A stretch of DNA of 64,000 bases, taken from the NCBI GenBank assembly GCA_009391195.1, contig VEXB01000001.1:102232-166231 (forward strand), given 5' to 3'. This document shows, piece by piece, positions 9,682 to 61,272 of the stretch. The notes beneath the pieces are model-generated. The model was not told where the DNA came from and made no database searches. It saw only the letters and a program-made list of their open reading frames with translations. This DNA is from SAR202 cluster bacterium AC-647-P02_OGT_505m. GTDB taxonomy: Bacteria; Chloroflexota; Dehalococcoidia; Lucifugimonadales; UBA826. How positions within the stretch are numbered: position 1 is the stretch's first letter; each line of letters begins with the position of its first letter. The position numbers and the translations under genes are program-made.

Positions 9682-10788
9682 TCAAAATCCTTCCAGTCTC
9701 AGTTGCATGGCGTCTTGAGAATTTTCAAGCGAATCGAATCCCGATACCCCAACACCTATCAACCTGTAGGAGTTTTTTTGATTTAACTCCTGACTGAGTA
9801 GGTCGATGGCAATATCCGCTATTTCTGAAGAAAGTTGAACTGGCTCAGTAACCGAACGCTGTCTAGTAACTGTGACGAAATCAGAAGACCTCAACTTGAG
9901 TTTAACTGTCTTTCCTCTCACCCCTCTAGATGATAAAGATACGCCAACATCATTGCTGAGTCGGATGACAATTTCTCGCAATATCTCGGGATCCTCTGAG
10001 TCATCTACCAGGGTAGTTTCCGAACTAAATGATTTTCGCTGACGGTGTGTAATCACAGGTCTGGGGTCCTCTCCAAGACACATATTTCTCACAGACCTAC
10101 CGTTGGATCCAAAATTAGATTCAAACCACGATATATCTCTTATTGCCAATTCTCCAATCGTATTAATCCCATAGGAATTCAGCCGCTCCATGGTCTTCGG
10201 TCCGATACCCCAAATAGATTGAACAGGCAATGGAGATAAAAATTGTCTTTCAGTCCCCGGTCTCACAACAGTTATGCCATCTGGTTTATTCATATCGGAT
10301 GCAATTTTGGACACACATTTCGACGTGCCCACACCCACAGATATCGTCAGAGAAAGCTCATCCCAAACTCTCTTCCTGAGTGCCTGGGCTATCAATGGCG
10401 GAGTGATTTCACTAGTTTCGCACTCAGTGACGTCCAGATATGCCTCGTCTAAGGAGAGAGACTCGACTAATGGAGTTATGCTACGGAATATGTCCATAAC
10501 CTTGCTAGATACAGATCGATAAATTTCGAATCTGGCTGGTCTACGAACAAGTTGGGGACAAAGCCTATAAGCCCTGCTCATAGGAATTGCAGAACGTATC
10601 CCGAATGTTCTTGCTTCGTAGGAAGCGGATGCCACTACCCCTCTATTTTCAGGCTTACCTCCTACGACAACAGGTTTACCGTTTAATTCTGGGTAATCTC
10701 TTTGTTCAACTGAAGCATAAAACGCATCGAAGTCAGCATGAATTATCGCTTTGTACTGTTCAGATAAACGTAGGTCATCAGTAGGCAT
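9682..10788 (-). CDS. dinB: DNA polymerase IV (Y-family translesion polymerase)
   Basis: 368 aa. IIHADFDAFYASVEQRD and SLDEAYLDVT are the Y-family catalytic motifs, and the helix-hairpin-helix WGIGPKT is present. Confidence 0.9.
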   Translation of the reverse strand: MPTDDLRLSEQYKAIIHADFDAFYASVEQRDYPELNGKPVVVGGKPENRGVVASASYEARTFGIRSAIPMSRAYRLCPQLVRRPARFEIYRSVSSKVMDIFRSITPLVESLSLDEAYLDVTECETSEITPPLIAQALRKRVWDELSLTISVGVGTSKCVSKIASDMNKPDGITVVRPGTERQFLSPLPVQSIWGIGPKTMERLNSYGINTIGELAIRDISWFESNFGSNGRSVRNMCLGEDPRPVITHRQRKSFSSETTLVDDSEDPEILREIVIRLSNDVGVSLSSRGVRGKTVKLKLRSSDFVTVTRQRSVTEPVQLSSEIADIAIDLLSQELNQKNSYRLIGVGVSGFDSLENSQDAMQLRLEGF

Positions 10789-10796
10789 GGCTACGT

Positions 10797-11690
10797 TTAG
10801 CCAATGGACTGAATAATTCTTTCGATGGTTGTGTTCTTGAAATTGTTTAGGTCATCCGCATCTTTGAGCAAAGTACCGATCGTTTGAGATACAACTTCTG
10901 GGTCCAAATGGTCCATATGCAGAGCAACCATAGCTGTGGTCCAATCTAACGTTTCAGAGACTCCAGGATTTCTTCCAAGTCCCTCTGTTCGTGTTGCCTG
11001 CACGAATTCACATACCTGACGGGCAAGCTGTTCAGAGACCCCCTCCACTTTTTTTCGAACTATTTGAAGCTCTTTTTGTAGCTCTGGATAATCGACCCAT
11101 AGATATAGGCACCTTCTTCTTAAAGCATCCGATAAATCACGGGTCCTGTTAGAAGTGAGTATCACAAGTGGTTTATTTGATGCTTTAATCGTTCCAAGCT
11201 CTGGTATTGTTACTTGAAATTCGGAAAGAAGCTCCAACAAAAACGCCTCAAATTCTTCGTCAGCCCTATCAACTTCATCAATCAGCAATACGGGCGATTT
11301 TTCCTTGGTCAAAGCTGATAAAAGAGGTCTTTCGAGTAAAAACTGTCTCCCGAATATTTCTGTTTCCATTTCATTGGGAGACAGTTTTCCACTTTCATTC
11401 ATTCGAATCCATAAAAGCTGTTTCGGATAATTCCATTCATACAGAGCCGCATTTACATCTAAGCCTTCATAACATTGAAGTCTTATTAGTTCGGTATCCA
11501 GTAACTCTGACATGGTGGTTGCAATTTGAGTTTTACCTACCCCTGCCCTACCTTCTATGAGTAGCGGTCTCTGGAGCACCTGAGCCAAGTGGAGAGAAGT
11601 AGCGATCGCTGGATCAGCCACATAATCAAGGTTATTCAAATTCTCAACCAGATTAGTAACTTCGTCGGAGTTGTTATACCCGATGGTCAT
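10797..11690 (-). CDS. MoxR-like AAA+ ATPase (CoxD-like context)
   Basis: Walker A GRAGVGKTQ, Walker B LLIDEVDRA and the RRRC sensor region are present. The listed ORF starts at a TTG (11708). The ATG at 11690 follows GAGGAAAG and is the more likely start. Confidence 0.8.
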   Translation of the reverse strand: MTIGYNNSDEVTNLVENLNNLDYVADPAIATSLHLAQVLQRPLLIEGRAGVGKTQIATTMSELLDTELIRLQCYEGLDVNAALYEWNYPKQLLWIRMNESGKLSPNEMETEIFGRQFLLERPLLSALTKEKSPVLLIDEVDRADEEFEAFLLELLSEFQVTIPELGTIKASNKPLVILTSNRTRDLSDALRRRCLYLWVDYPELQKELQIVRKKVEGVSEQLARQVCEFVQATRTEGLGRNPGVSETLDWTTAMVALHMDHLDPEVVSQTIGTLLKDADDLNNFKNTTIERIIQSIG

Positions 11691-11786
11691 AATATGATCT
11701 TTCCTCAAAAAAACATCTACCCTGCCCTAGCCATGTGGCCAAAGGCAGGGCAGACGGTGATTTATTAGATGCGTTAATAAGCAATC

Positions 11787-14132
11787 TTACGCGTCAGAAT
11801 CTCGAATAATCCTCCAAACTTTCTCAGCCTTCGCAGGCATATCGATATGCTTTACGCCATAAGGCTCAAGCGCGTCTACCACAGCGTTTATTACGGCAGG
11901 AGAACCAGCTATAGTAGCGGTTTCACCAGCGCCCTTTACACCCATGGGATTAACAGGTGAAGGTGTAACAGTGCGGTCAAGTTCATACATAGGCATATCA
12001 GAGGCCCTAGGTACCGCGTAATCCATCATACTCCCTGTCAATAGCTGTCCTGTTCCATCATAAATCGCCTCTTCTTGAAGCGCCTGCCCAACTCCTTGTG
12101 CTGCTCCTCCATGGACCATACCGTCCACTATCAAGGGGTTTATTACGTTCCCGACATCGTCGACAGCGATATATCGAAGCAAGGTAACTTCCCCAGTGGA
12201 TTTATCAATTTCTACCACTGCGATATGGGTACCACCAGGCCATGTAAAGTTCTTAGGATCGAAAAAGCTCATTGCCTCTAGTCCTGGTTCCATGTCTTCT
12301 GGAATATCCTCAGTGTAGTAATAGGAGGCCAAAGCAATTTCCTGGATAGTTTTTCCCTCAGATGGGGCACCTCTCACAAATAATTTCCCATCCTCAAATT
12401 CAATGTCCTCTTCCGAAGCTTCAAGAATATGGGCTGCCAGCTTCTTAGCTTTTTCCTTTATTTTCGTGGTACTCATATGGATGGCACCTCCACCCACAGC
12501 AGCGCTTCTGCTACCGAATGATCCCGTGCCCATTTGGATCTGAGATGTGTCACCGTGAATTACGTCTATATCCTCCACAGGTATACCCAACTCAGAGGAA
12601 ACTAACTGAGCAAAGGCCGTCTCATGACCTTGTCCATGAGATGATGAACCTGTAAAGACTGACACTTTACCGGTCATGTGTATTCTCACATTAGCGCTCT
12701 CCCATAACCCCGCTCTTGCACCCAATGTACCTGCTACTGCAGAGGGAGCCGCCCCACAAATTTCCACGTAGGCAGACAAACCTATACCGAGAAGTTTTCC
12801 TTGTTCTCTCGCCTCTTGCTGTTCTTTCCTAAAGTCAGAGTATCCAACCATTTCAAGGGCTCTATCGAAAGAGGCAATGTAATTTCCGCTGTCATAGCTA
12901 ACCGTAGTGGCTACTTCATATCCGTCCTCAAAAGGAGGAATGAAATTCAATTTTCTAACTTCAGCGGGATCCATGCCAATTTCTTGTGCAAAAAGATCAA
13001 CCGCTCTCTCAACAGCATAAGTTGCCTCAGGCCTACCGGCTCCTCTATAGGCATCAACCGGCGTGGTATTGGTAAACGGAGCAATCACTTTGCAATAGAT
13101 GTTGGGAATTTTGTAGGGTCCCGACAACATAAGTCCATATAGCCACGTCGGAATTAAAGGAGCAAAGGTTGATAGGTAGGCTCCCATATTAGCTAGCGTC
13201 CTGACATCGAGTCCCGTTATCGTGCCATCCTTATTACCAGCAATTGCGATATCAGTAATATGATCACGTCCGTGGGTCGTAGCCAGATAACCTTCAGATC
13301 GAGACTCAATCCATTTGACAGGCCTCTTAAGGTTCTTTGCAATTATCGGTGCTATCACCTCTTCGGCGTATAGATATAGTTTGCTTCCAAATGCCCCCCC
13401 AACATCAGGAGCTATCACTCTTATTAAGTGTTCAGGATGGCCGGTGACTAAGGCCAATAAAACTCTTACCAAGTGAGGTATTTGCGTGGAAGTCCACATT
13501 GTTAACTGGTCGGTTCCCGAATTGTAATCCACCACTACACCACGATTTTCCATCGCAGTCGGAATTAATCGCTGATTTACAAATCTCTGGGTTACCACAA
13601 CATCAGAAGAGGACTTGGCCTCTGAAATACTTCCAGCATCAACTTCCCATTCAAAGGCAGTGTTGTTTGGTGCATCTTCATGAAGTTGTACCGCACCGTC
13701 CGCCAAGGCGTCGTTCATATCTATAACTGCATCCAATTCCTCATATTCCACGTCAATAACTGAAGCGCCATCTGAAGCCTGGGCGGCAGACTCTGCCAAA
13801 ACAGCAACTACAGCGTCCCCAACATATCTAACCCGATCAACAGCTAGCGGAGGATGAGGAACTTCTTTTGTATCTGGTACCACCCATCCGCAGGGAAGGG
13901 AGCCAAGCTCCTCCTTGAGATCCTCACCTGTAAATACAGCGATCACTCCCGGAGACTTCAAAGCTTCAGCGGTGTCTATCGACTTAATCAAAGCATGTGC
14001 TAAGGGGCTACGAACCAAAACCATATGGAGCATGCCAGTCAGAGTCACATCTTCTACATACGTCCCCTGACCTGTTATCAGACGGGGGTCTTCTTTTCTC
14101 TTTAGTGCTGCACCAAATGCCGCAGTAGTCAT
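11787..14132 (-). CDS. Molybdopterin-binding large subunit of the xanthine dehydrogenase / CO-dehydrogenase family (form II CoxL-like)
   Basis: The active-site loop VDAYRGAGRPE (AYRGAGR) is the form II signature rather than form I AYxCSFR. The likely start is the ATG at 14132 (MTTAAFGAALKRKEDPRLITGQGTY), preceded by GGAGAGG. The listed ORF extends 30 codons further upstream. Confidence 0.85.
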   Translation of the reverse strand: MTTAAFGAALKRKEDPRLITGQGTYVEDVTLTGMLHMVLVRSPLAHALIKSIDTAEALKSPGVIAVFTGEDLKEELGSLPCGWVVPDTKEVPHPPLAVDRVRYVGDAVVAVLAESAAQASDGASVIDVEYEELDAVIDMNDALADGAVQLHEDAPNNTAFEWEVDAGSISEAKSSSDVVVTQRFVNQRLIPTAMENRGVVVDYNSGTDQLTMWTSTQIPHLVRVLLALVTGHPEHLIRVIAPDVGGAFGSKLYLYAEEVIAPIIAKNLKRPVKWIESRSEGYLATTHGRDHITDIAIAGNKDGTITGLDVRTLANMGAYLSTFAPLIPTWLYGLMLSGPYKIPNIYCKVIAPFTNTTPVDAYRGAGRPEATYAVERAVDLFAQEIGMDPAEVRKLNFIPPFEDGYEVATTVSYDSGNYIASFDRALEMVGYSDFRKEQQEAREQGKLLGIGLSAYVEICGAAPSAVAGTLGARAGLWESANVRIHMTGKVSVFTGSSSHGQGHETAFAQLVSSELGIPVEDIDVIHGDTSQIQMGTGSFGSRSAAVGGGAIHMSTTKIKEKAKKLAAHILEASEEDIEFEDGKLFVRGAPSEGKTIQEIALASYYYTEDIPEDMEPGLEAMSFFDPKNFTWPGGTHIAVVEIDKSTGEVTLLRYIAVDDVGNVINPLIVDGMVHGGAAQGVGQALQEEAIYDGTGQLLTGSMMDYAVPRASDMPMYELDRTVTPSPVNPMGVKGAGETATIAGSPAVINAVVDALEPYGVKHIDMPAKAEKVWRIIRDSDA

Positions 14133-14393
14133 GGAATTCACCTCTCCTGAATCACCAATTTCTCTTATACTTCCATACCGCCCGGTCGTTGACAGAGCTA
14201 AGCCAGTGTCAACTTCAAGCATTCAACGAACTGCAACTGAACCAAAAACCTAGCCGAATATTACTATGACCTTTATGTGCAGCTCGAGCGTAATGTATAT
14301 CAGAAATAACTACTATTCAACTGAACAACTAATACTCAGGAATAGCGCAGACTTGTTTAAGCAGGCATGTCATTTTCCAAAGTTACAGAAGTG

Positions 14394-22630: not shown

Positions 22631-22754
22631 TGATGTAAATCTTGAATCTCAAATAAAAAGGATGAGTTTGGGCACCCACGTTTGTTTGGATCCAATTCAT
22701 ACGGAATATTTGTACAATTTCATGAACTATAGACGATATTAAAAACTAAAAGTT

Positions 22755-22915
22755 TGGGAAAAGGGTGCCCAGTAGGGTTTAAAGAGGAAGTCGGTCTAAA
22801 TCCGACACTGTCCCGCAACGGTAGGTTCTCTGACAGAACAAGTCCGGTCCACCACCCTTCCCATCTATCTAGGCCTTCGCGGAAAGGTGTCAGATGTGAA
22901 AGAAACCCGTTTTCC
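22755..22915 (+). promoter_or_regulatory. Cobalamin (B12) riboswitch
   Basis: The string GGTGCCCAGTAGGGTTTAAAGAGGAAGTCGGTCTAAATCCGACACTGTCCCGCAACGGTAGG (22764-22825) reproduces the conserved 5' core of the family: a purine-rich AGGGAA-like junction, a GGT..AAATCC..AC hairpin, then CTG..CCCGCAACGGTA. Downstream, CGGAAAGGTGTCAGA...AAACCCG resembles the B12-box region. GGGTTT (22775-80) can pair with AAACCC (22903-08), and AAGGGTG (22761-67) with CACCCTT (22853-59). The element sits directly 5' of a BtuF/BtuC/BtuD-like operon. Boundaries are approximate. Confidence 0.8.
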
Positions 22916-23056
22916 ACCACTACTCTGCCCTATGATTCTAAAGGTAAGAGTTTGTTGAAAGTTGCTGTCACGAGCAAAAATCAACACTTCGGATCAAACT
23001 TCTGAATTCTCTCTGTAACCTTCCGAAAAGGTCTCTTCAACCTAGGAGGCAATCGG

Positions 23057-24178
23057 TTGCAGGCAACAAGGAATAAATACATTTCCATATCCGCTTTGAT
23101 TTCAATCGTTATCGTTTTTTCGTTAGGATGTTCCAATGTGGTCCCAGAACTTCCTCTTCCCGCGGCACAAGCAGCTCCTGCAGCTCCTGCAGCTCCTGCT
23201 CAAAAATTAATATATTCGAAAAGCACCCCTATCCAACCTATTAAACCTGCACCCGCAGCCCCAGCAACGCCGGCAGAAATACCAACATCTACAGCTGTCG
23301 AAAAAGAACATAATAGCCAGATAAAAACAACCTCAAAACCCAAAAATAAACTTAAAACAGTAGACAGTCCAAGATCTGCATCTTTTCCTGTAACAATCAT
23401 GGATCGTGAAGGCTATGAGGTTATTTTTGAAGAAGCACCCAACCGTATAGTCGCTTTTGACTCAGCAGCTGTAGAGACCATATTTGCTATAGGCGAAGGA
23501 CATAGAATAATTGCCACCCACGACTTCGTTTCATACCCTCCACAAGTGAATTCGATAAAAAAAGTTGGGGATGCTTTCAATATGGACATAGAAGCAATCG
23601 TCAATTTGAACCCGGATCTCGTATACATATTTTACCCAACATTCAAGGAGCAGCTTGAAAATGCGGGACTTAGGGTGTTACTCATACAAACAATAGACGA
23701 TGACTTCCAAAAAACCGCTGATTTATTCCGAATGTGGGGATCGATAACAGGCGCTGTTGCAGAAGCAGATATTCTCGCCTCAGACTTCGAGATGAGAATT
23801 GATTCGATCCAAAACATGTTATCTCCATATAAATCAGGTCCTTCAATATTTCAGGATGTAGGAGGGCTTTGGACTCCAGGAAACGATACCCTGGTCGGGA
23901 ACGTCTTCAAGACCCTTAAACTCCAAAACGTGGCACATGATATCGAGGGTTACGCACAGTTCAGCCCGGAAACGTTGATTGAGAGAAACCCTCAATATAT
24001 TATGGCCCCCTATGGCGACAACATAAGCTCAAATAACAAATTCAAAAATGTGACCGCTGTGCGTAATGGTGCTGTAATAATCCCATCTGATGATTATCTA
24101 TCCACATCTGGACCGCGTTTCATACTTGGTGTGGAAGAATTAGCCAAAACCATATATCCAGGTCTTTGGAAGAGATAG
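23057..24178 (+). CDS. ABC transporter periplasmic-binding lipoprotein, BtuF/FhuD-type (cobalamin or iron-chelate)
   Basis: TTG start 7 nt after AGGAGG. The signal peptide has the lipobox VFSLGC, followed by an Ala/Pro-rich linker. The C-terminal domain (RIVAFDSAAVETIFAIGEGHRIIAT) is typical of PF01497-type binding proteins. A riboswitch lies upstream. Confidence 0.8.
   Translation: MQATRNKYISISALISIVIVFSLGCSNVVPELPLPAAQAAPAAPAAPAQKLIYSKSTPIQPIKPAPAAPATPAEIPTSTAVEKEHNSQIKTTSKPKNKLKTVDSPRSASFPVTIMDREGYEVIFEEAPNRIVAFDSAAVETIFAIGEGHRIIATHDFVSYPPQVNSIKKVGDAFNMDIEAIVNLNPDLVYIFYPTFKEQLENAGLRVLLIQTIDDDFQKTADLFRMWGSITGAVAEADILASDFEMRIDSIQNMLSPYKSGPSIFQDVGGLWTPGNDTLVGNVFKTLKLQNVAHDIEGYAQFSPETLIERNPQYIMAPYGDNISSNNKFKNVTAVRNGAVIIPSDDYLSTSGPRFILGVEELAKTIYPGLWKR
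23171..23197 (+). repeat. Perfect 3 x 9-bp tandem repeat (GCAGCTCCT) encoding AAPAAPAAP
   Basis: Read directly: GCAGCTCCT at 23171-79, 23180-88 and 23189-97, inside the linker of the binding lipoprotein. Confidence 0.9.
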
Positions 24179-24208
24179 ATAAGTCTTTTTGGACAAGGCA
24201 AGCCCTAC

Positions 24209-25279
24209 ATGAGTGAACACGCACCTCGTCTCAGGTCCAACCATGAAAAATCTTGGAAATTTCCTTGGTTGAGAATATCGCTTGGCATATTTGGAACAAT
24301 TGTCTGCTGTTTAGTCGCGGCATCTATCGGATCAGTGGGGATCAATCCAAACTCCACTCTTTTGATAGCACTATCTAGAGTACCTATGATAGACATATCC
24401 CAAACGTGGCCAGACTCTTGGGACACAATATTATGGAAACTTCGATTTCCCCGAATAATTTTAGCTTTCATAGTTGGAGCATCCCTCTCAGTCTCAGGTG
24501 CAACCTTTCAGGGACTGTTTCGTAATCCTCTAGCAGACCCGTATTTAATTGGAGTAGCATCTGGCGCCTCCTTAGGGGCTACTGTTGTATTTCTAACAGG
24601 AATTCCATTTATCTACGGAGGTATCAGCATATTACCAATTGCATCTTTTACAGGTGGGTTAATAGCTGTTTTTGTTGCCTACGGAATAGCTGTTCGCTCA
24701 TCTAGCACCCGTCTAACAACCCTCATTCTCGCAGGCGTAGCAATCGGTTCTTTCACAACAGCCATTTCCAGCCTGTTAATGCTAAGAAGTGACCCTGACT
24801 TAAGGGTAGTTTTAAGTTGGATCATGGGAGGATTTATCAAGGCCCAGTGGAACCATAGCTTGTTTCTAATACCTTACCTGCTACCAGGATTCATCCTAAC
24901 ATTCGCTTACAGCAGAATCTTAAATACAATGCAATTAGATGAAGAATATGCCTCTAGCCTCGGAGTTAATATTGAGAGAACAAAGAAAATATTAATCTTG
25001 GTTGCAACGATGATGACTGCAGCCGTAGTCTCCTTTAGCGGTTTAATCGGATTCGTGGGATTAGTTGCTCCTCATATAGTAAGACTTATTTGGGATTCTG
25101 ATTTCCGAACACTTATCCCCATGGCGGCGATCGTCGGTGGTTGTTTCCTCGTTATAGCTGATCTAATTGCCCGCACCATATTGAGCCCAGGAGAGATACC
25201 CGTTGGTATCGTAACGGCATTATGTGGTGCTCCATTTTTCATATATTTGTTGTTAAGAAATCGGCAAAATACGACATGA
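24209..25279 (+). CDS. FecCD/BtuC-family ABC transporter permease
   Basis: 356 aa and polytopic. It carries family-typical strings RFPRIILAFIVGASLSVSGATFQGLFRNPLADPYLIGVASGASLGA and GEIPVGIVTALCGAPFFIYLL. Confidence 0.85.
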   Translation: MSEHAPRLRSNHEKSWKFPWLRISLGIFGTIVCCLVAASIGSVGINPNSTLLIALSRVPMIDISQTWPDSWDTILWKLRFPRIILAFIVGASLSVSGATFQGLFRNPLADPYLIGVASGASLGATVVFLTGIPFIYGGISILPIASFTGGLIAVFVAYGIAVRSSSTRLTTLILAGVAIGSFTTAISSLLMLRSDPDLRVVLSWIMGGFIKAQWNHSLFLIPYLLPGFILTFAYSRILNTMQLDEEYASSLGVNIERTKKILILVATMMTAAVVSFSGLIGFVGLVAPHIVRLIWDSDFRTLIPMAAIVGGCFLVIADLIARTILSPGEIPVGIVTALCGAPFFIYLLLRNRQNTT

Positions 25280-26076
25280 AAATTGGTATATCTCTGAATA
25301 ACATACGATTTTCATACGGCAAAAACGACGTCATCAAAAACGTGGATTTGGAAATTAGTAATAGAGAGATAGTCTCTTTGGTTGGACCAAATGGTGCCGG
25401 TAAGACTACATTACTAAAACTAATGGGTGGTTTGTTAAATCCATCCCATGGAAAAGTCTACGTAATGGGGAAACAAATAGGAGAAATTAGTCCCCGCTCG
25501 AGAGCTCGAATTGTGTCAACCGTACCCCAAAATCCCCGCGTTCCTCAAAATTTGAAACTCTCTGAATTTGTAATGCTAGGTAGAAATGCCCATCTCAGCC
25601 TAACACAGTGGGAGAGCAACGAAGATATCCAGATTGTTAAGGAGGCATTGGAAGTTACTGACACCCTAAATCTAAAGGACCGACACCTTGGTAAAATCTC
25701 CGGTGGGGAATTACAAAGAGGTATGCTTGCTCTTGCTCTTGCCCAAGAATCTCCTGTCATGCTACTTGATGAGCCTACATCGAATCTAGACCTATCACAT
25801 CAATCCAAAATGATGAGTCTAATCGCCAATTCACATGAATCGAGAGTAGGTCCCACTATCATAGGCATTCATGATTTAACACTAGCAGCCAGATATAGTA
25901 ACCGAATGATCTTGGTATCAGAGGGAAAGGTATTCGCAGACGGTACTCCAGAGGAAGTCTTAACTCCCGCTAATATAAAAGAAGCCTATGGGGCAGAGGT
26001 TGCCATTATCCCTCATCCGGAGGGAGGATCGCCTGTGGTACTCCCTGTTTTCAATTCATATCCACAGACAAAATAA
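25276..26076 (+). CDS. ABC transporter ATP-binding protein (BtuD/FecE-like)
   Basis: Walker A GPNGAGKTT, the signature ISGGELQR and Walker B MLLDEPTSNLD are present. The likely start is the ATG at 25276, which overlaps the permease stop (ATGA). The listed ORF start at 25222 lies inside the permease gene. Confidence 0.85.
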   Translation: MKIGISLNNIRFSYGKNDVIKNVDLEISNREIVSLVGPNGAGKTTLLKLMGGLLNPSHGKVYVMGKQIGEISPRSRARIVSTVPQNPRVPQNLKLSEFVMLGRNAHLSLTQWESNEDIQIVKEALEVTDTLNLKDRHLGKISGGELQRGMLALALAQESPVMLLDEPTSNLDLSHQSKMMSLIANSHESRVGPTIIGIHDLTLAARYSNRMILVSEGKVFADGTPEEVLTPANIKEAYGAEVAIIPHPEGGSPVVLPVFNSYPQTK

Positions 26077-45595: not shown

Positions 45596-46267
45596 ATGTA
45601 TGGCACTGGAATAATTAAAGGTTTGGGTATCACCATGAAAAACTTGGTTTTACCAACACGTCAATTCAATATACACCAATATCCCAATAGAAAGGCCAGT
45701 CCAGCCGATCTGGCAAAATTAGAAGAAAAAAACACTATTTCTTTCCTATTTTCAAATCCAATAAGATCCGCTAGGGCTTTAGTTGGACTGGAGACTATAG
45801 AAGAACGCTTGCCCCAACATGCTCGATTTAGAGGCGAGGAGTTCGCTTGGTACGACCAACGATGTACGGGTTGTGCAAGCTGCGCTAAATACTGCCCTTT
45901 GGGAATAATCAAGATTGTGACAGACACTAGCGGTGTTAATCTCCAGGAAGGTCAAAGTTACGACATAGAGACTTTTGACATCGATATAGGGAGGTGTATG
46001 TTCTGCGGTCTATGTGTTGAGGCATGTCCTTATGACGCTCTTCATATGGGAAGTGGATTTGAAGAAGGTACATATCGCAGAAGCGAACTCGTGATTGATG
46101 TCGAACGTCTGAGGAAAGCGGATAAGAAACCCAGCACGTGGTTTAGGCCTCAACTTACAGACAAGAGTTACGACCCCATCAAAGGGTCCGAGGCAAACTG
46201 GGATGAGGTGGGAAGGCACGAGAAACCCACGGGAGATCAGCAACGTGATAGGTGGGCTAAAAGATGA
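45596..46267 (+). CDS. nuoI: NADH-quinone oxidoreductase subunit I (2x[4Fe-4S])
   Basis: Contains CTGCASCAKYCP and CMFCGLCVEACP. It has a C-terminal charged extension of about 50 aa. Confidence 0.9.
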   Translation: MYGTGIIKGLGITMKNLVLPTRQFNIHQYPNRKASPADLAKLEEKNTISFLFSNPIRSARALVGLETIEERLPQHARFRGEEFAWYDQRCTGCASCAKYCPLGIIKIVTDTSGVNLQEGQSYDIETFDIDIGRCMFCGLCVEACPYDALHMGSGFEEGTYRRSELVIDVERLRKADKKPSTWFRPQLTDKSYDPIKGSEANWDEVGRHEKPTGDQQRDRWAKR

Positions 46268-46812
46268 TTTTAGGTGAGGGAACAGAGGGAGCGTTAATAA
46301 CTGAACTAGTGTTCTGGGTAATTGCGCTATCAACTGTCGTATCAGCTATAGCGGTTGTCCAAATACGCGATCTTTTCAGGGCATCTTTATTCTTAATCGT
46401 TACTCTACTAGGGGTTGCAGGTCTCTTTATCCTTCTGAGAGCCGAATTTCTCGCAGGTGTTCAACTAATGGTTTATGTCGGAGCAATATCAGTATTAATT
46501 ATATTTGCCATCCTGATGACTAGAGACCTGGAAGAAGGAAGTACCTCCCACAGTTTCAGAATTCCCGTAGCACTAGTGTCTTTGATTTTGATGGGTGTCT
46601 CTATATATGCAATTTCCAATACCGAGTGGAATATCATCGGAAGTGAAACCTTAAATCCAGATCAAATGAACCAAGCGGCTCATGTTTTTACTAATGGTAT
46701 TCCTACGTTGGCAAAATTATTACTAAGAGATTTTGTTCTGGCATTCGAGGTAGTGTCTGTACTGTTACTTGCAGCTGTGCTGGGTTCGCTAGCTCTTGTG
46801 AGAGGTCGATAA
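46264..46812 (+). CDS. nuoJ: NADH-quinone oxidoreductase subunit J
   Basis: 182 aa and polytopic, with GVQLMVYVGAISVLIIFAILM. ATGA overlap with nuoI. Confidence 0.88.
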   Translation: MILGEGTEGALITELVFWVIALSTVVSAIAVVQIRDLFRASLFLIVTLLGVAGLFILLRAEFLAGVQLMVYVGAISVLIIFAILMTRDLEEGSTSHSFRIPVALVSLILMGVSIYAISNTEWNIIGSETLNPDQMNQAAHVFTNGIPTLAKLLLRDFVLAFEVVSVLLLAAVLGSLALVRGR

Positions 46813-57757: not shown

Positions 57758-58642
57758 ATGAACGGCTTGATCGTCCACGACATCCCAGAAGTTAAGCATT
57801 CGACTATGATATTGGCCTTTGCAGGGTGGCCTGACGCGGCAGAAGCTGCCACACGGGCTATCAGGTATATGGCAAGAAAATTGCCCACCAAAAAAATTAT
57901 GGAAATCGATCCAGAATATTATTATGACTTCACAGTAAATAGACCCCAAACCAGGATGAACCGCCGGAAAGAAAGAATAATAAAATGGCCAACTAATGAA
58001 TTCCATAGTTATATACCACAAGACGATCCTGCAAATGCCGTCTTACTGTACGTAGGTACAGAGCCAAATCTGAAATGGAAAACATTTTCTAACACCGTCT
58101 TGGAAGCAGCCAGTAAAGTCGGAGTCGAGTTGGTTGTATCCTTAGGATCCCTTTTAGATGCAGTTCCTCACACCCGTGAAGTCAGAATAACAGGTCGCGC
58201 AAGCAATAAAGAACTCAGTAAAAAAGCTCAGTGGCTCGGTATAAAAAACTCTGGCTACCAGGGACCTACAGGTATACATTCCGCTTTTGCAGATGAATGT
58301 AACAGCAGAGAAATACCTCACGCTAACATATGGTGTCATTGTCCCCACTACGTACAAACAACCCCTAATCCAGTGGCAAGCTATGCTCTTCTTGAAAGAC
58401 TCAAGAATTTAATAGATGTTGACGTCGATATGAGCGAACTCGGGTTAGCCGGGCAGGCTTTCCAAGAAGAGGTCACAAAAGCCATATCTAATCAACCAGA
58501 TGTTAAATCCTATGTCACTAAGTTAGAAAATCAATATGATGAGTCTGTAGGCGAGGCAGAGGATATGCCAACTGGTACTGACATGGTGCACGAAATTGAA
58601 GAATTTTTGCGCAGCCAAAGCAGTGGTCCAGAAGGTTCGTAG
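57758..58642 (+). CDS. PAC2-family (proteasome assembly chaperone 2-like) protein
   Basis: 294 aa with the N-terminal MILAFAGWPDAAEAATRAIRYM typical of bacterial PAC2-family proteins, and an acidic C-terminal tail. Confidence 0.6.
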   Translation: MNGLIVHDIPEVKHSTMILAFAGWPDAAEAATRAIRYMARKLPTKKIMEIDPEYYYDFTVNRPQTRMNRRKERIIKWPTNEFHSYIPQDDPANAVLLYVGTEPNLKWKTFSNTVLEAASKVGVELVVSLGSLLDAVPHTREVRITGRASNKELSKKAQWLGIKNSGYQGPTGIHSAFADECNSREIPHANIWCHCPHYVQTTPNPVASYALLERLKNLIDVDVDMSELGLAGQAFQEEVTKAISNQPDVKSYVTKLENQYDESVGEAEDMPTGTDMVHEIEEFLRSQSSGPEGS

Positions 58643-58717
58643 AATTACGAACCAATAAAATACAGATACAGCCAAAGGCAAAACTTTAAATTTAAAGGTT
58701 CAAAACGGTTGTGAAAG

Positions 58718-59065
58718 TTGTCAGTCTTAGAAATTAACCCTTCATACTATAGAGACCTGTTTGCCCAATGGACCTCAACCCATAAGTCTCTCCCTGAATT
58801 CCCAAAAGATCAAAAGGAGCAACTCGTAGCACTCCATTTTGTGATGATGGCCTTCCAAGAAGGAGTCGACTACAGCGAGGAAGATTTAAATCAAGGTATC
58901 AAAGATAGAAACCTCTTTGCAACTGACCACATTCAGATCAGATCAAATTTGATAACCAACGGATTTATAAAGCGAATAAAGGACAAACAGACCGCCTCAT
59001 ATAGACCTTCCCGTCTATTCTTAGATAAAGCCAATTGGGATCCTGCGATCCCTGGGATTTCTTAA
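58718..59065 (+). CDS. Small protein, DUF2087-like
   Basis: 115 aa. EEDLNQGIKDRNLFATDHIQIRSNLITNGFIKRIKDKQTASYRPS resembles the DUF2087 pattern (E.ELN..L......DH..LRR.LVD.G.L.R). Assigned by eye, with a TTG start. Confidence 0.4.
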   Translation: MSVLEINPSYYRDLFAQWTSTHKSLPEFPKDQKEQLVALHFVMMAFQEGVDYSEEDLNQGIKDRNLFATDHIQIRSNLITNGFIKRIKDKQTASYRPSRLFLDKANWDPAIPGIS

Positions 59066-59069
59066 GTCG

Positions 59070-59960
59070 TTGCTAAACAATAAATATCCGCTGGAAAACA
59101 AAGTCAACATAGGAAACCTAGAACTAAGTTACCGAAACTGGGCCCCGGAAGGAAGGCAAATTCTAATGCTTCATGGCCTAGCTTCCAACGCAAGGATCTG
59201 GGATCTTTTGGCTCCAATCTTAGCCAAAAACTTCTCAGTTATTGCTGTGGACCAAAGAGGACATGGAAAATCTGACAGGCCTGACACCGGCTATGATTTT
59301 GATACGGTGACAAATGACGTCGTGGGATTTATAAATGCTTTAAAGCTTAAGAACCCTATTGTTGTGGGACATTCTTGGGGAGGAAGCGTTGCACTTTGCC
59401 TAGCGACACAACGACCAGACCTCATCTCCGGCCTCTGCTTCGTAGACGGAGGCCTAATAGAAATTTCAAGAACTCCTGGTAACAGTTTAGAAAAAGCATT
59501 GGTCAGCATGGCACCACCTCTATGGGAGGGAGTCTCCGCTTCGGATGTTAGAGAACGTCTAAAGAGGCGAGACTGGGGAGAGCAAGACGATACCTCAACA
59601 TCAGCAAATCTTGAGGAAATTGTCATGGCGAATTTGGAGACTCATCCTGACGGAAGTATAAATGCAAGACTTTCTAGGAAGAACCACCTAGAAGTCGTAA
59701 AGGCCTTCTGGAATCACAAACCATCAAAATTATTTGAGCACATCAGATGTCCAACGTTAATCTTGTCAGCGCGAATGGGATCCGAAAATACAGATAGACA
59801 AGTTCTAAAAAATGAACTCTTAAATGAAGCTGCCCAAAAAATAGCCATTAATAAATCTATGTGGCTGGAAAACAGCATCCACGACGTACCAATCCAAAGA
59901 CCGGAATTACTCGCGTCAATCCTAACGAATAATATTGAGAGCGGATTCTTCGGAGAATGA
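59070..59960 (+). CDS. Alpha/beta-fold hydrolase
   Basis: 296 aa with the HG oxyanion motif MLHGLASN, the nucleophile elbow VVGHSWGG and a C-terminal His context NSIHDVP. Confidence 0.8.
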   Translation: MLNNKYPLENKVNIGNLELSYRNWAPEGRQILMLHGLASNARIWDLLAPILAKNFSVIAVDQRGHGKSDRPDTGYDFDTVTNDVVGFINALKLKNPIVVGHSWGGSVALCLATQRPDLISGLCFVDGGLIEISRTPGNSLEKALVSMAPPLWEGVSASDVRERLKRRDWGEQDDTSTSANLEEIVMANLETHPDGSINARLSRKNHLEVVKAFWNHKPSKLFEHIRCPTLILSARMGSENTDRQVLKNELLNEAAQKIAINKSMWLENSIHDVPIQRPELLASILTNNIESGFFGE

Positions 59961-59962
59961 AA

Positions 59963-60229
59963 CTAGACAGCACCTATAACTACTGGCTTCCCTAAAAAAT
60001 AGTACGGGACATTCCAAATCCCTAAAATACCTAAATCCACAACTGCCTTATTAGCATACAATTTCTTTACTATCCCTGAGGACCCGGTGCTAGGTCCACC
60101 CTTAACATTTCCCGTATATAAAACTTTTTGGCCGGGCCCAACACCCCTTGAGTTGATCACGGCTTCACATGGAAAACTTTGATCCATTTCCACAGGCAAT
60201 TTAAGTTGTATCGAATTTGTCTTTTTCAT
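59963..60229 (-). CDS. Hypothetical small protein (88 aa)
   Basis: The ORF ends 2 nt from the convergent hydrolase gene. Its Gly-rich, beta-like composition (GVGPGQKVLYTGNVKGGPSTGSSGIVKKLYANKAVVDLGILGIW) looks like a real protein. The SD is weak. It lies downstream of the LexA-box promoter at 60380-60408. Confidence 0.45.
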   Translation of the reverse strand: MKKTNSIQLKLPVEMDQSFPCEAVINSRGVGPGQKVLYTGNVKGGPSTGSSGIVKKLYANKAVVDLGILGIWNVPYYFLGKPVVIGAV

Positions 60230-60379
60230 TGGTATATGTCCACACTACTACTCTAGTTAAGCCTCTGAATTCGTACACTTTCCATCTATCCCCAAAAGAA
60301 TTTTTATATGGGTTTAGGTGATTTATTTTAATTTTTATGGACATTTATATATTCCTACTTATGGCCACACTTTTAGAAC

Positions 60380-60408
60380 ATTTTAGAACAGAACAAGTGT
60401 TCTGTCAA
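60380..60408 (-). promoter_or_regulatory. Near-consensus sigma70-type promoter with an embedded LexA (Cheo-type) box
   Basis: The minus strand reads TTGACA (60408-60403), the 17-nt spacer GAACACTTGTTCTGTTC, then TAAAAT (60385-60380). The palindrome AGAAC-N4-GTTCT (60390-60403) occupies the spacer and touches the -35 element. Confidence 0.5.
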
Positions 60409-60516
60409 TCCGTGTGTGCCGGCCAAAGCGTTCATACCTATTTTTTCTTCGAATGCTACAATTCCGAGAGACGTAATCTAATGAGATCAAAAGTTTAGGA
60501 AATTTAAACCAATACG

Positions 60517-61272
60517 ATGAGTAGTCGACTGAAAAATAAAGTGGCGATAATAACTGGTGCCGCAAAAGGACAGGGGGAGTTTGAAGCCCGACTTTTCGCT
60601 AGTGAGGGAGCCACTGTCGTTCTTTGCGATATAGATGTAGAGGCTTGTGGTAAAACTGCTGAAGAAATCTCTTCTTCTGGAGGAAGTGCAGTCTCTATGA
60701 CCCTGGATGTTACAAGTGAGCCTAACTGGATAGGGGTCGTAGAACAAACAGTAGAATTTTTTGGAAAACTCGATATTCTCGTTAATAACGCAGGTATCTA
60801 TAGTCGTGTCCCGATCGAAAACGCCTCGGTTGAGGAATTTGATCACATTTTAGAGGTGAACTTGCGCGGAGTTTTCCTTGGAACAAAGCATGCAATACCA
60901 GCTATGAGAACCTCGGGGGGAGGATCTATCATCAACATATCTTCTACCGCTGGGATCGTGGGTAATGTGGGTAGTGGAGCATATGGAGCTTCTAAGGGTG
61001 GTGTTAGGTCTTTTACAAAATATACGGCAATTCAGCATGCCTCCGAAGGAATAAGAGCAAACTCTGTACACCCTGGGCCAATCGATACTGACATGATATC
61101 TGACAATCTTTCTACCGCTGAAGGAAGAAAGTCCACTGAATCACGAATACCGATGGGCCGAGTGGGAAGCATTGAAGACGTCGCAATGGGGGTTTTATTT
61201 TTGGCTACCGATGAATCCTCATACATGACTGGGTCAGAGCTAGTCATAGACGGAGGGATGACCGCTCAATAG
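60517..61272 (+). CDS. Short-chain dehydrogenase/reductase (SDR)
   Basis: 251 aa with the cofactor motif TGAAKGQG, NNAG and the catalytic YGASKGG. Confidence 0.85.
   Translation: MSSRLKNKVAIITGAAKGQGEFEARLFASEGATVVLCDIDVEACGKTAEEISSSGGSAVSMTLDVTSEPNWIGVVEQTVEFFGKLDILVNNAGIYSRVPIENASVEEFDHILEVNLRGVFLGTKHAIPAMRTSGGGSIINISSTAGIVGNVGSGAYGASKGGVRSFTKYTAIQHASEGIRANSVHPGPIDTDMISDNLSTAEGRKSTESRIPMGRVGSIEDVAMGVLFLATDESSYMTGSELVIDGGMTAQ

Follow-up and report, generated by a model that had tools for sequence, protein, structure and literature searches.

SulA of Escherichia coli is a LexA-repressed, Lon-degraded inhibitor of FtsZ polymerisation, and lineage-specific SOS division inhibitors are known from other bacteria, namely YneA (Bacillus subtilis), ChiZ/Rv2719c (Mycobacterium tuberculosis), DivS (Corynebacterium), SosA (Staphylococcus aureus) and SidA/DidA (Caulobacter). 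The latter inhibitors have membrane anchors and target late divisome proteins, several of them are removed by proteolysis, and YneA-type genes often lie beside lexA. Such inhibitors vary from phylum to phylum and are usually found via genetics; here we present a candidate from comparative genomics. It is located in a 64,000-nt stretch of SAR202 cluster bacterium AC-647-P02_OGT_505m (contig VEXB01000001.1, positions 102,232 to 166,231 of the forward strand; hereafter the window), in which a near-consensus promoter with a LexA-type operator in its spacer precedes an 88-aa gene of an uncharacterised Dehalococcoidia-wide family (59963..60229, minus strand). We put at about 0.75 the probability that this is a LexA-operated promoter driving an SOS effector tied to cell division, ancestrally the first gene of a two-gene ftsZ operon. 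The regulatory part of this reading is supported by several independent comparative tests and the part that concerns the target by the gene neighbourhood and a resemblance of motifs; from these comparisons we infer LexA binding, damage induction, the protein target and instability.

The 88-aa protein and SulA are both small, cytoplasmic (by prediction for the former), FtsZ-linked and probably of fast turnover, and LexA control, established for SulA, is predicted here. SulA is RecA-like while the 88-aa protein is predicted to be an SH3/KOW-like barrel, with no sequence or fold relation between the two, and sulA is not in an operon with ftsZ, whereas the FtsZ link of the small gene is known from genomes alone. 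YneA, ChiZ, DivS, SosA and SidA/DidA resemble the new family in being small, clade-limited, LexA- or damage-induced (for the family a prediction) and usually annotated as hypothetical; they differ from it in their membrane anchors, since no membrane segment is predicted in the family. Unlike YneA-type genes, the small gene lies beside lexA in one of 124 family loci (L106, from a Dehalococcoidia metagenome-assembled genome (MAG) and the only family locus also bearing lexA) and beside ftsZ in most; these 124 loci come from different species genomes, among the matches listed. No homology to the SOS division inhibitors (SulA family, LysM-type YneA/ChiZ) was found in Pfam, NCBIfam, PHROGs or PDB sequences. 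The regulatory logic is of a classical kind; in the literature searched, neither the protein family nor the ftsZ operon arrangement is described. In the deep ocean, for instance, SAR202 and other Dehalococcoidia occur in abundance; they are uncultured, and their cell cycle and stress responses are almost unstudied. The clade LexA operator/promoter architecture can be used to map the SOS regulon across MAGs by the hundred, a conserved family of predicted SOS genes, so far without a name, becomes annotatable, and a coupling of damage to division via a small protein genomically tied to ftsZ becomes a testable hypothesis; an ftsZ operon behind a LexA site, together with a new candidate effector, is also of interest for research on bacterial cell-cycle checkpoints.

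The minus strand of the promoter/operator stretch reads GGATTGACAGAACACTTGTTCTGTTCTAAAATGTTCTAAAAG. A -35 hexamer TTGACA (60403..60408), a 17-nt spacer and a -10 hexamer TAAAAT (60380..60385) match 11 of 12 positions of the sigma-70 consensus (60408-60380). A preliminary description of this DNA had called this the best promoter of the window, and it is indeed the sole 11/12 match on both strands of the 64 kb, the runners-up reaching 10/12. The spacer contains the palindromic operator AGAACA-NN-TGTTCT with the core GAAC-N4-GTTC (60390..60403, both strands), where it had been reported: AGAACA-CT-TGTTCT, or AGAACAcTTGTTCT, on the minus strand (60403-60390) and AGAACAAGTGTTCT on the plus strand (60390-60403). 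The operator therefore overlaps the core promoter, being inside the spacer of the only 11/12 promoter in the window. The 12/14 match to the Cheo-box consensus CGAACRNRYGTTYC given previously holds on the plus strand and falls to 11/14 on the minus strand. GAAC-N4-GTTC occurs four times in the window, with a mean of 0.86 in shuffled sequences, and the copy described here is the only intergenic one, the other three being within suf and nuo genes; a chance palindrome is ruled out by the shuffle counts together with the recurrence of the module in family loci. Three further half-sites had been claimed; we found two (AGAAC starting at 60375 and 60385 on the plus strand), which makes four half-sites in all. 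Read as GTTCT on the minus strand, the third half-site (60385..60389) abuts the -10 directly and the fourth (60375..60379) lies just 3' of the -10, around the predicted transcription start at ~60373. These two copies (60389-60385 and 60379-60375) form a tandem repeat of TGTTCTAAAA on the minus strand, and TTTTAGAACA is present twice at 60371-60390, as stated before.

Conservation of the box and the promoter in related intergenic regions had been proposed as a check, and both are conserved. In two syntenic orthologues (L001 and L009) a 38-nt block from the -35 to the fourth half-site is 100% identical to the window, compared with 82% identity in the SDR-side intergenic DNA that flanks it and 78% at third codon positions. 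Across the window and three further relatives (L002-L004) the central dinucleotide is swapped (CT, AT, TG) between unchanged half-sites, giving the palindrome variants AGAACAcTTGTTCT in the window, AGAACAaTTGTTCT in L002/L003 and AGAACAtgTGTTCT in L004. The -35/box/-10 module is present in 119 of the 124 family loci, with an exact GAAC-N4-GTTC in 69, one mismatch in 46 and two mismatches in 4; the remaining five have no site, and one of them is truncated. Mismatched half-sites take the forms GTAC, GCAC and GTGC. When 117 distinct promoters were aligned, the information was confined to TTGACA, GAAC, GTTC, TGTTCTA, the final T of the -10 and the GTTCT after it, while the four central bases of the box and both flanks of the module were unconserved and conservation dropped sharply at the module edges. 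The -35 hexamer is near-invariant and the -10 is invariant as TAnnnT. The direct GTTCT copies around the -10 are conserved at >=98% (the third half-site) and ~84-98%, the second position of the palindrome at 77-85%. On the evidence of these comparisons, the promoter/operator is a phylogenetic footprint far beyond chance.

The lexA genes of the clade provide an independent view of the same motif. LexA is widespread in SAR202/Dehalococcoidia, and with the LexA of L106 as query we collected clade LexA proteins and 80 metagenome lexA loci (L124-L203), whose proteins are 52-61% identical to NCBI's SAR202-named LexA, with one of them (L124) 100% identical. The clade lexA promoters share the layout of the window promoter (L106, L124, L146-L150) and are stereotyped, with TTGACA, often a degenerate spacer box, the -10, an orphan TGTTC likewise just after the -10, and a full GAAC-N4-GT[TAG]C box; there are three to five half-sites per lexA promoter (L124-L203; L106 6429-6520). 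For example, the lexA promoter of L148 contains TTGACAtAGTACACTTGTTCTGATAATTTGTTCgGAACATTAGTGC, one from the L146-L150 group reads TTGACA-t-AGTACACTTGTTCTG-ATAATT-TGTTC-g-GAACATTAGTGC, and those of L106 and L124 have a degenerate box in the spacer and then GAAC-N4-GTAC or GAAC-N4-GTGC just after the -10. When every 4-N4-4 dyad was counted in 63 non-redundant lexA upstream regions, with no motif assumed, the top dyad was GAAC-N4-GTTC, found in 34 of the 63 regions at 27-fold over background, followed by GAAC-N4-GTAC (20) and GAAC-N4-GTGC (9), which are the same variants seen as mismatches in the small-gene promoters. A LexA matrix was built from 82 lexA-promoter sites only. With this matrix the window site scores 19.0 bits, the best in the window; the second match, CTGAACTAGTGTTCTG at 46301-46316 (plus strand), scores 14.0 bits, is intragenic (~40 nt inside a nuo-cluster open reading frame (ORF), 46264-46812) and is probably due to chance. 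Among the family upstream regions 93% exceed the 99th percentile (9.4 bits) of background in which the modules were masked, and their median of 14.3 bits lies above the masked-background maximum of 12.7 bits. Predicted LexA control of the 88-aa gene is strongly supported because the module is conserved, the lexA promoters are alike and a matrix made from lexA sites alone picks the window site. The reading of the palindrome as a LexA operator, first made from the window by itself, has thus passed all comparative tests run (orthologues, lexA promoters, lexA-only matrix).

The LexA of Dehalococcoides ethenogenes is reported to use an operator of the GAAC-N4-GTTC type. The window operator has its palindromic core in common with the Cheo box (DinR box), as well as a repressor geometry overlapping the core promoter, and lexA autoregulation, as expected in Gram-positive LexA systems, is matched by the window motif at the clade lexA genes. 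The flanks are A/T here and C/G in the Cheo box; the clade operator tolerates GTAC, GCAC and GTGC, in which it resembles the cyanobacterial type and not the Cheo box; and every palindrome comes with one or two additional direct GTTC half-sites around the -10, again unlike the Cheo box. These extra copies raise the question of another protein. A clade-specific non-LexA regulator might bind the GTTC repeats, for example a winged-helix response regulator on TGTTCTA-N3/4-TGTTCTA with 10-11 bp spacing, and the higher conservation of the direct copies relative to the second position of the palindrome would agree with this, as would the fact that LexA dimers of Gram-positive-type systems do not classically bind to direct repeats. 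It would control lexA as well, or work jointly with LexA. Against such a regulator, the tolerated half-site variants are identical in both promoter sets, and orphan TGTTC copies stand beside full boxes in the lexA promoters too, so that the extra half-sites look like an element of the clade LexA operator. Moreover, the palindrome has exactly the form GAAC-N4-GTTC of the LexA motif of Gram-positive bacteria, and direct repeats of the form GTTC-N7-GTTC serve as a LexA motif in another phylum (PMC3323433). We therefore regard a non-LexA regulator as improbable. By its sequence the operator belongs to the LexA class defined by GAAC-N4-GTTC, in a layout of several half-sites that is specific to the clade. 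We take the extra half-sites to belong to the clade LexA operator design, perhaps for a second, cooperatively bound dimer.

The box was also considered as an operator of the divergent SDR gene (60517-61272, plus strand). This was rejected, as the module tracks the small gene despite other upstream neighbours and the predicted SDR transcript starts ~72 nt downstream of the box centre. The SDR gene has its own extended -10, TGCTACAAT (60454..60462, plus strand), which is kept in L001, L002 and L004; it is a neighbour outside the LexA unit and is probably not SOS-controlled, because this -10 sits outside the predicted LexA-protected block.

The product of the 88-aa gene has the same sequence as NCBI MQF65616.1, which is annotated as a hypothetical protein in SAR202 cluster bacterium AC-647-P02. 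Its close homologues number 23 and come from marine metagenomes and MAGs, and a profile search of 1.84 billion cluster representatives gave 55 clusters (50% identity) of stand-alone 37-110-aa proteins. A hand-made DNA pattern, back-translated from the conserved residues and scanned against species-representative genomes, found at least 119 loci, every one a true family member and all from Dehalococcoidia, SAR202 or Chloroflexota MAGs. Among the matches listed, the family as recognised by sequence has so far turned up in Chloroflexota (Dehalococcoidia/SAR202) alone. The preliminary description had taken the ORF for an orphan of unknown family: it is uncharacterised, all named homologues being annotated as hypothetical protein, but with relatives in at least 119 Dehalococcoidia/SAR202 genomes it is not an orphan. 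The family was not matched in Pfam, NCBIfam, PHROGs or PDB sequences (88-aa product; PDB by profile). Compared with orthologues whose proteins are 83-85% identical, the three codon positions have identities of 0.91/0.92/0.78, and because of this pattern the 88-aa ORF is, on comparative grounds, a real coding sequence under purifying selection; a spurious ORF is ruled out by the homologues and the codon-position pattern.

A cell-division factor had been guessed at from the window alone, and this guess gains support from the gene order in relatives. We counted linkage in the 116 informative loci, i.e. those reaching far enough, and found ftsZ directly downstream on the same strand in 82 of them (about 70%; tblastn), plus one overlapping call; the downstream gene was identified via neighbour-ORF clustering and has the Pfam domains Tubulin and FtsZ_C. 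The gap between the small gene and ftsZ is <=40 nt in 32 loci, and in 13 the two genes overlap, some by ATGA/GTGA and others by 20 nt, the latter with the Shine-Dalgarno sequence located within the small gene (e.g. L032, L050, L055, L067), so that translation of the two is often coupled; an example of the pair is L080 2201-3715 (2201-2483 and 2582-3715). In none of the 82 loci did a promoter-like site of >=10/12 turn up from the start of the small gene to ftsZ. Thus, as far as sequence can tell, ftsZ appears to sit behind a LexA-operated promoter in 82 Dehalococcoidia genomes. The divergent SDR gene is common to ftsZ-linked and ftsZ-less contexts, and because it is shared by both we conclude from the comparison that the ancestral order is SDR <- -> small gene -> ftsZ. 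Thirty-five loci, the window included, are without ftsZ; these are mostly low-GC marine lineages (mean GC 0.44 vs 0.60). According to this gene-order comparison, the window lineage lost ftsZ from the locus yet kept the promoter, the operator and the gene.

These data bear on a second explanation, in which the small protein is a housekeeping FtsZ partner, a division factor co-produced with FtsZ, and not a damage-induced inhibitor, LexA only tunes the ftsZ operon, and the window gene is an operon remnant. Translational coupling with ftsZ and the lack of another strong promoter before it would fit such a role, and ftsZ is needed without damage, so the promoter cannot be fully shut. The 35 genomes that keep the promoter, the operator and the gene with no ftsZ downstream argue the other way, since this retention ties LexA control to the small gene itself and not to ftsZ alone; in addition, a C-terminal -AA and a disordered motif (see below) suit a regulated, short-lived factor better than a structural one. 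We consider the housekeeping role rather unlikely. As a separate observation made by eye, the FtsZ encoded behind the small gene starts with a conserved short hydrophobic or amphipathic-looking peptide (MLKHLFSAF, MLKDILESM, MFDNIIQAM and similar), followed by a variable linker (L080 2582-2620; also L007, L008, L013, L044, L045, L053, L062); this peptide could be membrane-targeting or partner-binding.

The small protein is predicted to be cytoplasmic. AlphaFold2 models a small barrel of six strands, whose core reaches a pLDDT of 84-92, with residues 1-17 and 86-88 disordered; AlphaFold2 and Foldseek place an SH3/KOW/Tudor-like beta-barrel core at residues ~20-82 (codons 59984..60172, minus strand). 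Some family members have sub-threshold Pfam matches to KOW5_SPT5 and MSSS (MutS2/Smr-associated SH3 domain). An SH3/KOW-like barrel is a plausible fold class for the modelled protein, from which family membership does not follow. The family and structure search suggested earlier therefore delivered homologues and a barrel prediction for the 88-aa product but no named family.

Two short segments outside the barrel are conserved in the family. At the C-terminus, after a variable linker, 106 of 122 proteins end in -AA, -VA, -TA or -IA; the window protein has -GAV at this place and P0008, a close allele, has -GAA. The ssrA tag and the LexA N-terminal fragment reportedly carry C-terminal ClpXP degrons ending in ...LAA or ...VAA. 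The family C-termini recall such ssrA-type ClpXP signals and may be a putative degron, and the -GAV end of the window protein differs from the ...LAA and ...VAA forms. At the N-terminus a short linear motif with the consensus Q-[LIM]-x-[MLF]-P-G-[MI]-P is found in 114 of 116 distinct N-termini, and it lies 35 residues before an invariant GGP in 93 of the 112 N-termini that fit the strict form Q-[LIMV]-x-[MLIFV]. Most members have Q-L-x-M-P-G-M-P, and the window protein has QLKLPV at residues 8-13 (codons 60191..60208, minus strand), a segment with pLDDT < 50. In the ftsZ-less loci the motif is relaxed to Q-L-x-[LF]-x-h, where h is hydrophobic, and the -AA end is often lost.

The N-terminal motif resembles the peptides that bind the sliding clamp. 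The clamp-binding consensus is QL[S/D]LF or QxxLF, and the tight-binding hexapeptide of Hda is QLSLPL (PMC12309361). Clamp-binding proteins (Hda with QLSLPL, the Pol IV C-terminus, UmuD/UmuC, ImuB) carry a Q-L-x-h-x-h type peptide in a disordered terminus, which the putative clamp-like motif of these predicted SOS-regulon proteins resembles, while the known clamp ligands are enzymes or accessory subunits and the family consists of stand-alone 88-aa barrels. This leads to a third explanation, that the protein is mainly a ligand of the sliding clamp (DnaN), its motif filling the clamp cleft and slowing replication or managing the access of translesion polymerases, with ftsZ as inherited synteny. 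The near-invariance of Q-L-x-[ML]-P-G-[MI] within an otherwise variable, disordered N-terminus would be accounted for in this way. QLKLPV of the window fits the QLSLPL type, and its Q, the L at position 4 and the following hydrophobic residue fit QxxLF (PMC12309361). The DinB encoded in the window (9682-10788, minus strand) ends in ...AMQLRLEGF, a seven-residue clamp-binding-like C-terminus, and QLRLEGF and the family motif have the same Q-L-x-L-x-G-hydrophobic spacing. On the other side, the family consensus has P-G at positions 5 and 6, where clamp motifs usually have a hydrophobic residue, and the tight coupling to ftsZ in 32 genomes is left unexplained. A role mainly at the clamp is a possibility, though a doubtful one.

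An SOS effector tied to cell division would work as follows. In the undamaged cell a LexA dimer, possibly more than one, would lie across the region from -35 to +1 and block RNA polymerase. After DNA damage, RecA-stimulated self-cleavage of LexA would free the promoter and the small protein would be made, in most relatives together with FtsZ. It would act as a short-lived SOS effector coupling damage to division, with FtsZ or the divisome as its target, or the replisome via the clamp-like motif. A more far-reaching version, which we offer tentatively and hold to be less probable than its negation, is that in most Dehalococcoidia the essential ftsZ is without a strong promoter of its own and is transcribed, often with translational coupling, behind the small gene, so that LexA gates the FtsZ supply directly, the small protein being a rapidly degraded (-AA) checkpoint factor that holds FtsZ inactive till repair or ties it to the sliding clamp, and the window representing a derived state, uncoupled from ftsZ and still under LexA. 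If true, LexA gating of FtsZ would be a coupling of damage and division not described in any model bacterium.

Several points weigh against an SOS division effector under LexA control. The regulation is read from sequence comparison, the organisms being uncultured. lexA was not found in the 64-kb window by tblastn, and the lexA of this genome is deduced from the clade; likewise, recA was not found in any related locus examined (tblastn with the E. coli RecA as query). With the LexA matrix, no site above 8 bits was present at dinB or its two upstream genes (10797-14222), which extends the earlier remark that dinB has no comparable box; because of this, dinB may not be SOS-regulated in this organism. 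Conservation of the two additional direct GTTC copies equals or exceeds that of the palindrome, which makes a second regulator possible. A LexA-repressed promoter before the essential ftsZ is hard to square with simple on/off repression; leaky repression, weak internal promoters or tuning by LexA are possible ways out. The Foldseek matches in PDB are to KOW, Tudor, PWWP and SH3-like domains at E ~0.01 and a TM score of ~0.5, and are generic. Finally, the -GAV end and the QLKLPV motif of the window protein depart from the family, and once unlinked from ftsZ this protein may have drifted in function.

The predicted 5' leader (60230..60372, minus strand) is ~144 nt long, in agreement with the ~140 nt estimated previously, and contains a ~108-nt lineage-specific insert. 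The Q8 codon follows the module after 167 nt in the window as well as in L001 and L009, compared with a family median of 68 nt, and the leader is ~40-70 nt in other lineages. The insert is confined to the closest relatives of the window (L001 3877-3992; L009 3189-3303). It contains a 47-codon ORF (60201..60344, minus strand) with AGGA 8 nt upstream; these features are present as the preliminary description had them, but the proposed role as a product of the promoter does not extend to the family. Under a further explanation the functional product in this lineage would be the leader itself, as a 47-aa peptide or a small RNA, and not the 88-aa protein. The ORF is intact in all three genomes, with its AGGA, and is called as a gene by some pipelines, and the identity to L001/L009 is 89-91% over the leader (89-94% for the insert) vs 78% at synonymous-like third codon positions. 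The ORF is absent from L002-L004 and all other lineages, substitutions (counted by eye) are not concentrated at third codon positions, and the 88-aa gene is under clear purifying selection. The leader RNA folds no better than shuffles (z = -0.71), Rfam has no match in the leader at either threshold, and the 47-aa product has no family match in Pfam, NCBIfam, PHROGs or a PDB profile search. Because the insert is present only in the closest relatives of the window, the 47-codon ORF cannot, on this comparison, be the conserved product of the promoter; it is probably not the functional product, and a function of the leader in place of the 88-aa protein is very improbable. A repeated mobile element is unlikely as the source of the insert, since no second copy was found in 1.36 Mb of related DNA.

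On the other side of the small gene, the genes for a PAC2-family protein, a DUF2087 protein and an alpha/beta hydrolase (57758-59960) are syntenic with it in about 45-57 SAR202-type loci; in the window the hydrolase gene converges on the small gene, with a 2-nt gap between the stop codons. Elsewhere in the window, a cobalamin riboswitch (Rfam RF00174, 41.2 bits; 22746-22870, plus strand) lies upstream of plus-strand ORFs that resemble an uptake system (23057-26076), and the ORF at 22754-23005 that overlaps the riboswitch is probably spurious.

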